Assembly (NCBI GenBank): GCA_945867665.1
Contig: CAMBIR010000002.1
Location: forward strand, 48,039-112,038
Origin: an uncultured Bacillota bacterium
GTDB lineage: Bacteria > Bacillota_I > Bacilli_A > RF39 > UBA660
Length of the DNA stretch: 64,000 nt
Reading direction: 5' to 3'
The position numbers and the translations under genes were made by a program. The notes beneath the pieces were generated by a model. That model ran no database searches. It saw only the letters and a program-made list of their open reading frames with translations, and was not told the origin of the DNA. Below are positions 22,604-22,849 of this stretch, in pieces. Numbering within the stretch: position 1 is the stretch's first letter; each line of letters starts with the position of its first letter.

Positions 22604-22849
22604 ATGGAGACAGTTCAAGCAGCAGTTGCTAATTGTATAGGGGTTATGTTAGGACTTGCTTTTTTAGGATTGGGTATTGGTGTTGGTATTCTTGGAGGAC
22701 GCGTTGCTGAAGCGGTAGGGAGAAATCCTGAAACGAAAAATGATGTTGTTCATTCCATTATGACCATTTTAATTATTACTTCAGTATTTTTATTGTTTTT
22801 ATTTTTATTCTGTTTCTTCTTATTATTCTATAATCCTTTAGTAGCATAA
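22604..22849 (+). CDS. F-type ATPase c-subunit-like protein lacking the helix-2 carboxylate
   Basis: GGAGG at 22591-22595 favours the ATG at 22604 over 22598. Helix 1 and the loop are canonical ([27 protein letters not shown]). Helix 2 ([34 protein letters not shown]) contains no Asp or Glu. Confidence 0.7.

Follow-up and report, generated by a model that had tools for sequence, protein, structure and literature searches.

A gene for a homologue of the ring subunit c of F-type ATPases was identified in a 64,000-nucleotide stretch of DNA (the window) from an uncultured Bacillota bacterium (assembly GCA_945867665.1, contig CAMBIR010000002.1), and the carboxylate with which such subunits bind ions was absent in its product. 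Beyond what the preliminary description of this sequence had reported, the c gene is the first gene of an F-type operon, complete but divergent, which also encodes a catalytic head, a putative stalk and a novel membrane partner. The parts for rotation were all apparently kept while those for ion translocation were all gone, therefore an ATP-hydrolysing F-type motor uncoupled from ions was the best-supported reading. It is rather probable (about 0.6 by our estimate) that the c gene encodes the ring subunit of a functional, divergent F-type rotary ATPase, which no longer translocates ions and whose output is not bioenergetic.

The c protein and its ion-binding column

The c gene was read from ATG 22604, which has an AGGAGG box 8 nt upstream, and not from ATG 22598, because the latter is too near the box and the homologues nearly all begin with METV. 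The 81-residue translation of 22604-22849 (+ strand) matched the family ATP-synt_C (PF00137) over profile positions 3-59 of 60, with E = 1.3e-8 and 35.4 bits against a gathering score of 24. The GxGxGxG motif and the polar R-Q/N-P loop were kept in it, and the earlier reading of the N-terminal helix and loop as those of a c subunit was thereby borne out. The equivalog cut-offs of the NCBIfam AtpE models were failed by the protein (best model NF005363, 36.3 below 71; TIGR01260, 22.6 below 43.95). Its nearest solved structures were c1 and c2/3 of Acetobacterium woodii, chloroplast c and Ilyobacter tartaricus c, with matches in the PDB down to E = 1e-13. In NCBI records, relatives of the protein carry the name 'F0F1 ATP synthase subunit C'.

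In known c subunits the carboxylate is embedded in the membrane within helix 2 (D61 in E. coli, E65 in I. tartaricus), and to our knowledge a buried Glu or Asp is used by every rotary ATPase ring studied so far. In the HMMER alignments with A. woodii c1 and c2/3 and with pea chloroplast c, the segment ...ILIITSVF... was placed beneath ...AAVAETSG..., thus Ser60 occupied the column of the ion-binding Glu. Neither Asp nor Glu was found in helix 2 of the sequence, in agreement with the preliminary description, and the helix-1 Gln of Na+-type relatives was Ile or Leu here. Helix 2 was low in complexity and rich in Phe and Leu, with T-rich DNA underlying it. It had also been claimed that no canonical helix was hidden in the other two frames; this held for the one that was translated, which stopped after two codons and contained nothing c-like.

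Conservation and distribution of the c family

A total of 822 homologues of c were found by protein search, and the 120 best all had a helix 2 of this carboxylate-less kind. The carboxylate column was Ser, Ala or Thr in all 64 distinct complete c proteins from loci of related genomes, and in 119 of 119 complete proteins among the 120 best database matches, so the comparison of orthologues proposed earlier revealed a conserved carboxylate-less helix. Ala stood in this column in about 40% of the family members, and an acidic residue anywhere in helix 2 was met in one singleton sequence only (64 + 119 family sequences). Among representatives at 50% identity, carboxylate-less members, in which the column was S, A, T, V, I, G or L, were met until identity had fallen to about 36-48%; below this level ordinary Glu-bearing c subunits appeared. 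A His at position R+10 (His50 in c) was present in 54 of the 64 distinct members; in some members Gln, Asn, Arg or Gly stood there instead.

The ratio of nonsynonymous to synonymous divergence (dN/dS, Nei-Gojobori), which had also been proposed as a check, was 0.005-0.3 between the c gene of the window and 12 relatives, with dS of 0.9-1.9 and synonymous sites saturated, indicating purifying selection. One relative (L001) had an identical c protein despite a dS of about 1.1, and the exact protein was present on 377 contigs. It was the best-conserved protein of the cluster; for example, c was 85% identical in locus L006, against 66% for beta.

In a scan of one genome per species, the family motif was detected in 344 genomes. 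Most of the carriers were metagenome-assembled genomes (MAGs) from gut and rumen labelled Bacilli, Tenericutes, Mollicutes, 'Mycoplasma sp. CAG:472' or 'CAG:956', and carriers with a guanine-plus-cytosine (GC) content of 40-58% were Lachnospiraceae, Clostridia and one MAG labelled Coriobacteriales. Two entries, Hominiventricola filiformis CLA-AA-H276 and Ca. Merdisoma sp., came from RefSeq or from cultured isolates. Long multi-hairpin c-like proteins, possibly fused rings, were also returned by the search of 50%-identity representatives (P0375, P0383, P0401, P0452 and P0484); examples were 435 residues long with 5 matched stretches, 631 with 8, and 1139 with 14.

Operon organization and catalytic head

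Nine tightly packed genes, overlapping or abutting, were read in one direction with c as the first (Table 1). Downstream of the terminator, the next promoter-like site was located at 28825-28853, ahead of a 641-residue open reading frame (ORF) at 28894, whose sequence looked htpG-like. The cluster was conserved in two gene orders across 89 loci: the one of the window (c, b-delta, alpha, beta, epsilon, membrane protein, gamma), and a canonical-like one (c, b-delta, alpha, gamma, beta, epsilon, membrane protein).

Table 1. Features of the c-containing operon and its borders, with positions in the window
Feature	Position	Strand	Basis or remark
Terminator-like hairpin after upstream recombinase gene	22428-22450		
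Sigma-70-type promoter	22526..22554	+	TTGACA-17 nt-TATAAT, extended TG; 12/12 consensus positions, best site in 22000-29200
c-subunit homologue, 81 aa	22604..22849	+	Pfam ATP-synt_C match; Ser60 in Glu/Asp column
Putative peripheral-stalk protein, 254 aa	22851..23615	+	AlphaFold2 and Foldseek
Alpha, 482 aa, divergent; shortened C-terminal domain, low-complexity tail	23599..25047	+	Pfam ATP-synt_ab, 239.7 bits
Beta, 451 aa, catalytic motifs intact	25049..26404	+	TIGR01039 atpD
83-aa protein, epsilon position	26401..26652	+	Position and size only
178-aa membrane protein	26655..27191	+	AlphaFold2 topology
Gamma, 260 aa	27222..28004	+	Pfam ATP-synt, 78.1 bits against cut-off 39.9
54-aa acidic protein; start overlaps gamma stop codon	28004..28168	+	ORF list
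70-aa Flp/class III signal-peptide pilin-like protein, last operon gene	28171..28383	+	Pfam Class_IIIsignal
Intrinsic terminator, hairpin then U-rich tract	28445..28505	+	-19.6 kcal/mol, z = -4.0 against shuffles

Alpha, beta and gamma were all recognized by Pfam, and the catalytic motifs were read in both head subunits. Alpha contained the P-loop GDKKTGKT and the Arg finger SVSRLGG, and beta contained its own motifs in 27 residues together with EELSEED. Both subunits were divergent, with about half of the bits of a true orthologue. For alpha, the NCBIfam scores of 426.6 and 377.5 bits fell under the cut-offs of 554 and 484, and on the model with cut-off 484 the E. coli alpha reached 869. Beta scored 480.1 on TIGR01039 (atpD), just above the cut-off of 462.85, against 875 for E. 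coli beta. Against solved structures in the PDB, alpha matched that of Fusobacterium nucleatum best (303 bits), compared with 256 for the G1 alpha of Mycoplasma mobile, and beta matched canonical F1 beta with about 399 bits, compared with 306 for M. mobile G1 beta. Alpha aligned with canonical alpha from residue 11-15 onwards, therefore the delta-binding region was at least partly retained.

The contig ended 1-230 bp upstream of c in five independent MAGs of the window's clade (L001, L003, L004, L019, L038), and the genes upstream of the operon differed between the window and L042. In natural populations the DNA immediately before the operon may thus be variable or repetitive.

Putative peripheral stalk, membrane partner and epsilon-position protein

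The 254-residue protein encoded after c gave no sequence match in Pfam, NCBIfam or PDB. Its AlphaFold2 model (mean predicted local distance difference test, pLDDT, 74.8; 82-93 over residues 121-230) comprised an N-terminal transmembrane helix extended as a 72-residue helix, a disordered linker, six short helices, and then a domain of helix and beta-sheet. Nearly all matches of a Foldseek search against the PDB were delta/OSCP chains (6vof_d with probability 0.92, 6oqr_W, 9o19_W, 6cp3_Y; E 0.01-0.3), with the mycobacterial b-delta chain 7jg5_d also among the top matches. Since a b-like N-terminal helix was combined with a delta/OSCP-like fold, the protein was read as a putative b-delta fusion, which could form the peripheral stalk.

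Subunit a (ATP-synt_A) was not matched in Pfam by any protein of the operon. The 178-residue membrane protein was tried as a sequence homologue of subunit a and rejected: Pfam searches with 17 members and a profile search of the PDB gave nothing, and hhalign against E. coli a gave a probability of 0.1. It evolved fast, with F13 and G46 as the only invariant residues, and neither a conserved Arg nor any other conserved charged or polar residue was found in its helices. In the AlphaFold2 model (pLDDT 73.4; predicted template-modelling score, pTM, 0.65) there was one transmembrane helix, a short helix and four more helices, the last two of 28 and 38 residues. All Foldseek matches had E > 1, with several a subunits among them (6n2d_a, template-modelling score 0.46; 8dbw_a, 0.48). 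This model suggests an a-like topology without the essential Arg.

The 83-residue protein was present in all complete clusters and had the size of the N-terminal domain of epsilon, without the C-terminal helices, which are the inhibitory part of that subunit. Neither hhalign against the E. coli subunit nor a profile search of the PDB revealed similarity to epsilon; it may be called epsilon-like by its position and size.

Genes linked to the operon

In the related genomes, about 10 kb on either side of the match was examined. In 49 of 60 loci having an upstream flank of at least 8 kb, c was directly preceded by same-strand genes for two large proteins, here named G1 and G2; in the CAG:956 group these genes were located between c and b-delta. 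In G1, of about 1800-2070 residues, a conserved N-domain and a membrane anchor at the N-terminus were combined with a long stretch of variable sequence; G2 was about 500-700 residues long, with a membrane anchor and an N-domain paralogous to that of G1. Neither belonged to a Pfam or NCBIfam family, and both were read as surface proteins. One member contained a collagen-like repeat and gave a weak fn3 match over the whole protein (27.0 bits), with no single stretch past the threshold. Examples across Bacilli MAGs and Lachnospiraceae were found in L083 (10324-17231), L012 (2129-9968) and L085 (7794-9923). G1 and G2 were absent from the whole window, even at E = 10, and were not beside the operon in its nearest relatives (L018, L033, L042).

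The last gene of the operon encoded a 70-residue protein with a G/QTLVEY motif, which reached 26.9 bits on Pfam Class_IIIsignal (cut-off 23.7) and 23.0 on Flp_Fap, under the cut-off of 32.2. Two clades whose divergence is deep, with identities in c as low as 60%, had such an Flp-like gene at the end of the operon; the gene was seen after gamma in L001-L004, L018-L033, L038, L040, L042-L045, L055 and L074. Genes for a Tad pilus or a prepilin peptidase were not found among the window genes scanned. The 54-residue acidic protein, conserved in the nearest relatives with the motif LPSMGL(I/L)DN, matched no Pfam or NCBIfam family.

Other neighbours were observed in some relatives. In L005, L009, L011, L015 and L016 a coiled-coil protein of 270-615 residues was encoded 3' of gamma, and in these five loci and in L010 and L013 a downstream protein had, by eye, an N-terminal signal peptide looking like the SipW/TasA type (...GS(A/T)YAYFSA...). 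Upstream of the cluster of Hominiventricola filiformis (L085, 170-3900), ORFs resembling a replication protein and a lytic transglycosylase were recognized by eye; given these small phage- or plasmid-like ORFs, the cluster may be located on or beside a mobile element.

Proposed function and alternative explanations

In the proposed mechanism, ATP would be hydrolysed by an alpha3beta3 head with intact catalytic residues. Gamma and the short epsilon-like protein, lacking the inhibitory C-terminal helices, would form the central stalk, a single b-delta fusion would form the peripheral stalk, and the small five-helix membrane protein would stand in for subunit a. ATP hydrolysis would then drive rotation of the c-ring, together with gamma and epsilon, relative to the stator. 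With Ser, Ala or Thr in c, and with an a-like partner devoid of Arg and of a conserved polar pathway, such rotation would be possible and the carriage of H+ or Na+ would not. This, along with the replaced helix-1 Gln and the want of a recognisable a, supports the proposal made earlier that a ring of this protein could not couple ion flow in the known way.

The torque or conformational cycle would most likely be spent on mechanical or transport work at the membrane. Because G1 and G2 are linked to the operon in most relatives and a pilin-like protein ends it here, the output is likely to be the moving, displaying or exporting of cell-surface proteins. Judged by the linkage within the family, large surface proteins would probably be the load or, in this lineage, the pilin-like protein; the F1-like ATPases of mycoplasmas offer a parallel.

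Several points weigh against the uncoupled motor. Homology, the loss of the ion site, selection, the make-up of the operon and gene linkage were observed, whereas the assembly of a ring, its rotation, its failure to carry ions and the kind of output are what we infer from sequence. The structural matches behind the b-delta stalk were weak, those behind the a-like protein weaker again, and sequence support for the 83-residue protein as epsilon was nil. Since the window and its nearest relatives have no adjoining G1 and G2, a link to surface proteins would apply here by analogy with the family only. In addition, a motor with no obvious load would be energetically wasteful, which is unexplained. 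No canonical F- or V-type ATPase was found among the other window genes scanned; one may be encoded elsewhere in the same genomes, in which the neighbourhoods of c were examined.

Among the alternatives, the one that survives best, and which we still consider unlikely, is that the ring is a membrane anchor only, with the F1-like head working as a tethered ATPase (one that unfolds or exports the pilin or the large proteins, for example) in the manner of FliI-FliJ-FliH in type III export. FliH resembles a b-delta fusion, and FliI and FliJ resemble alpha-beta and gamma; the linkage of the operon to genes for large membrane-anchored and pilin-like proteins would also fit. However, the conservation of c, highest in the cluster, is more than a plain anchor should need, and G1 and G2 possess N-terminal membrane anchors of their own. 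A full stator (b-delta and the a-like protein) and a full rotor (gamma, the epsilon-sized protein and c) were kept, which is sensible only if relative rotation matters.

Less likely again is an enzyme that continues to pump ions or make ATP, either through an unconventional site (for example His50 with Asp47 at the start of helix 2), or through a mixed ring with a Glu-bearing c encoded elsewhere. A. woodii c1, the best solved match, has one hairpin without Glu, and the c1/c2/c3 ring of that species is an example of a mixed ring; moreover, the His at R+10 is widely conserved, and beta narrowly clears the atpD cut-off. Against this, the operon has a single c gene and no a subunit, and the a-like partner has no Arg. 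Some members have another residue in place of His50, whose position is at the cytoplasmic interface instead of mid-membrane, Asp47 is found in ordinary c subunits as well, and with Ala in the column of so many members the side-chain ligand is gone.

Gene decay, or an artefact of assembly or of a frameshift, as the low-complexity helix 2 and its T-rich DNA might suggest and as the preliminary description had considered, was ruled out for practical purposes by the same protein in hundreds of independent assemblies, which excludes an assembly error, by a dN/dS far below 1 with saturated dS, by the early stop in the one alternative frame translated, and by the intactness of all operon genes.

Comparison with known rotary ATPases

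The operon resembles canonical F1Fo enzymes of the Na+ type (A. woodii, I. tartaricus, F. nucleatum) in the GxGxGxG helix 1, the R-N/Q-P-E loop and the NP(L/F) C-terminus of c, and in homologous alpha, beta and gamma with intact catalytic motifs. One branch of the family even has the canonical order c, b(delta), alpha, gamma, beta, epsilon. Unlike the canonical enzyme, the operon of the window has no carboxylate in c, no recognisable a and no essential Arg; b and delta are apparently fused, and the epsilon-position protein is without C-terminal helices.

As far as we know, hairpins without the carboxylate occur only in rings, fused or mixed, where other ion sites are retained; A. woodii c1 is an example. 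The c1 of this F/V hybrid ring and the multi-hairpin c of V/A-type enzymes are like the protein here in that a Glu-less hairpin can enter a ring. In those rings ions are still carried, because the hairpin without a site is fused or mixed with intact ones, whereas here the sole c of the operon is a single site-less hairpin.

The N-ATPase (atpDCQRBEFAG) is a second, laterally mobile F-type operon besides the housekeeping enzyme, with a, a full-site c, AtpQ and AtpR. The operon here may resemble it in being an additional and mobile one; membership was rejected, with TIGR03322 (c) at 14.3 below 130.85, TIGR03324 (alpha) at 359 below 750.5 and TIGR03305 (beta) at 424 below 752, and with no atpQ- or atpR-like genes.

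The F1-like X0 ATPases of mycoplasmas, namely Type 2 (the G1-ATPase of gliding in M. mobile) and Type 3 (associated with MIB-MIP), are non-bioenergetic (PMC3369863, PMC11864180, PMC12994834). Their clusters encode a 12-helix protein, protein 2, gamma, epsilon, the large protein 5, alpha and beta, without c and without a stalk (PMC3369863, PMC12994834). The N-terminal helix, or delta-binding region, of alpha is absent in them (PMC11864180, PMC12994834), and an origin from a b-delta fusion has been proposed for GliD of Type 2 (PMC3369863, PMC11864180, PMC12994834). As in Types 2 and 3, alpha, beta, gamma and an epsilon-like protein are divergent here and are encoded in a cluster of their own, with membrane proteins without charged transmembrane residues. 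Types 2 and 3 are linked to cell-surface proteins by function or by gene position; in the family described here, G1 and G2 adjoin c in 49 of 60 loci, and in the window they do not. Unlike Types 2 and 3, from which c and the stalk have been lost and whose membrane proteins are unrelated, the operon has a c homologue, a putative membrane-anchored stalk, at least part of the N-terminus of alpha and its own gene order.

Membership of Types 2 and 3 was rejected. The NCBIfam models MSC_0618/0619 and MMOB1660/1670 were failed (408.8 below 570, 308.7 below 520, 385.7 below 600, 373.6 below 850), and G1 subunits in the PDB scored below canonical F1; gene order, c and stalk differed too. The operon was placed among the F-type rotary ATPases, with a probable kinship in function to the F1-like ones. 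In full-text searches of the literature, neither a single-hairpin c lacking the carboxylate nor this cluster was found described.

Other features of the window

The segment 3860-11910, with a GC content of 0.23, encoded YfhO, a GtrA-GT2 fusion, a 492-residue protein and two tandem paralogous polytopic membrane proteins of 449 residues without Pfam match, and is probably a surface-glycosylation island. At 37683-40184, right after ftsA and ftsZ, a 124-residue protein with an N-terminal methylation (pilin) motif was encoded, followed by a possible lipoprotein of 212 residues and a highly charged protein of 394 residues, with no family match for either of the two. Measured in 2-kb windows, GC skew was very strong and uniform throughout (0.13-0.54), and of the 61 ORFs with 120 residues or more, 56 were on the + strand. 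The stretch is thereby marked as leading-strand DNA from a Bacilli genome of low GC content (about 30%).

Implications

Conservation in hundreds of gut species points to an undescribed motor, probably not ion-pumping. If this is true, the ring, stalks and head of an F-type enzyme would have been kept for a purpose other than ions, which has so far been argued only for the far more degenerate F1-like ATPases of mycoplasmas. The operon would then offer a natural uncoupled rotor for the study of torque transmission and of ring-stator contacts. As c and a putative b-delta are kept, carriers are found among gut Bacilli MAGs labelled Mycoplasma, Mollicutes and Tenericutes, and genes for giant membrane-anchored proteins are usually linked to the operon, an F1Fo origin of the gliding and antibody-cleaving motors of mycoplasmas would become testable. 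Experiments are feasible because one carrier, Hominiventricola filiformis CLA-AA-H276, is cultured. The name under which relatives of c are deposited means that metabolic reconstructions may credit gut bacteria that are abundant but uncultured with an ATP synthase or proton pump which is not there.

A more specific possibility, speculative and in our opinion well short of probable, is a fourth kind of repurposed F-type motor, intermediate between F1Fo and the mycoplasma F1-like X0 enzymes. It would be driven by ATP, with an ion-blind c-ring and a b-delta stalk, and its rotation, passed on across the membrane, would serve to shed, display or move pilin-like filaments or giant proteins of the cell surface. 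If so, the operon could encode an unrecognised machine for surface motility or adhesion in Lachnospiraceae and in abundant gut Bacilli related to Mollicutes (MAGs of the 'Mycoplasma sp. CAG:' type).

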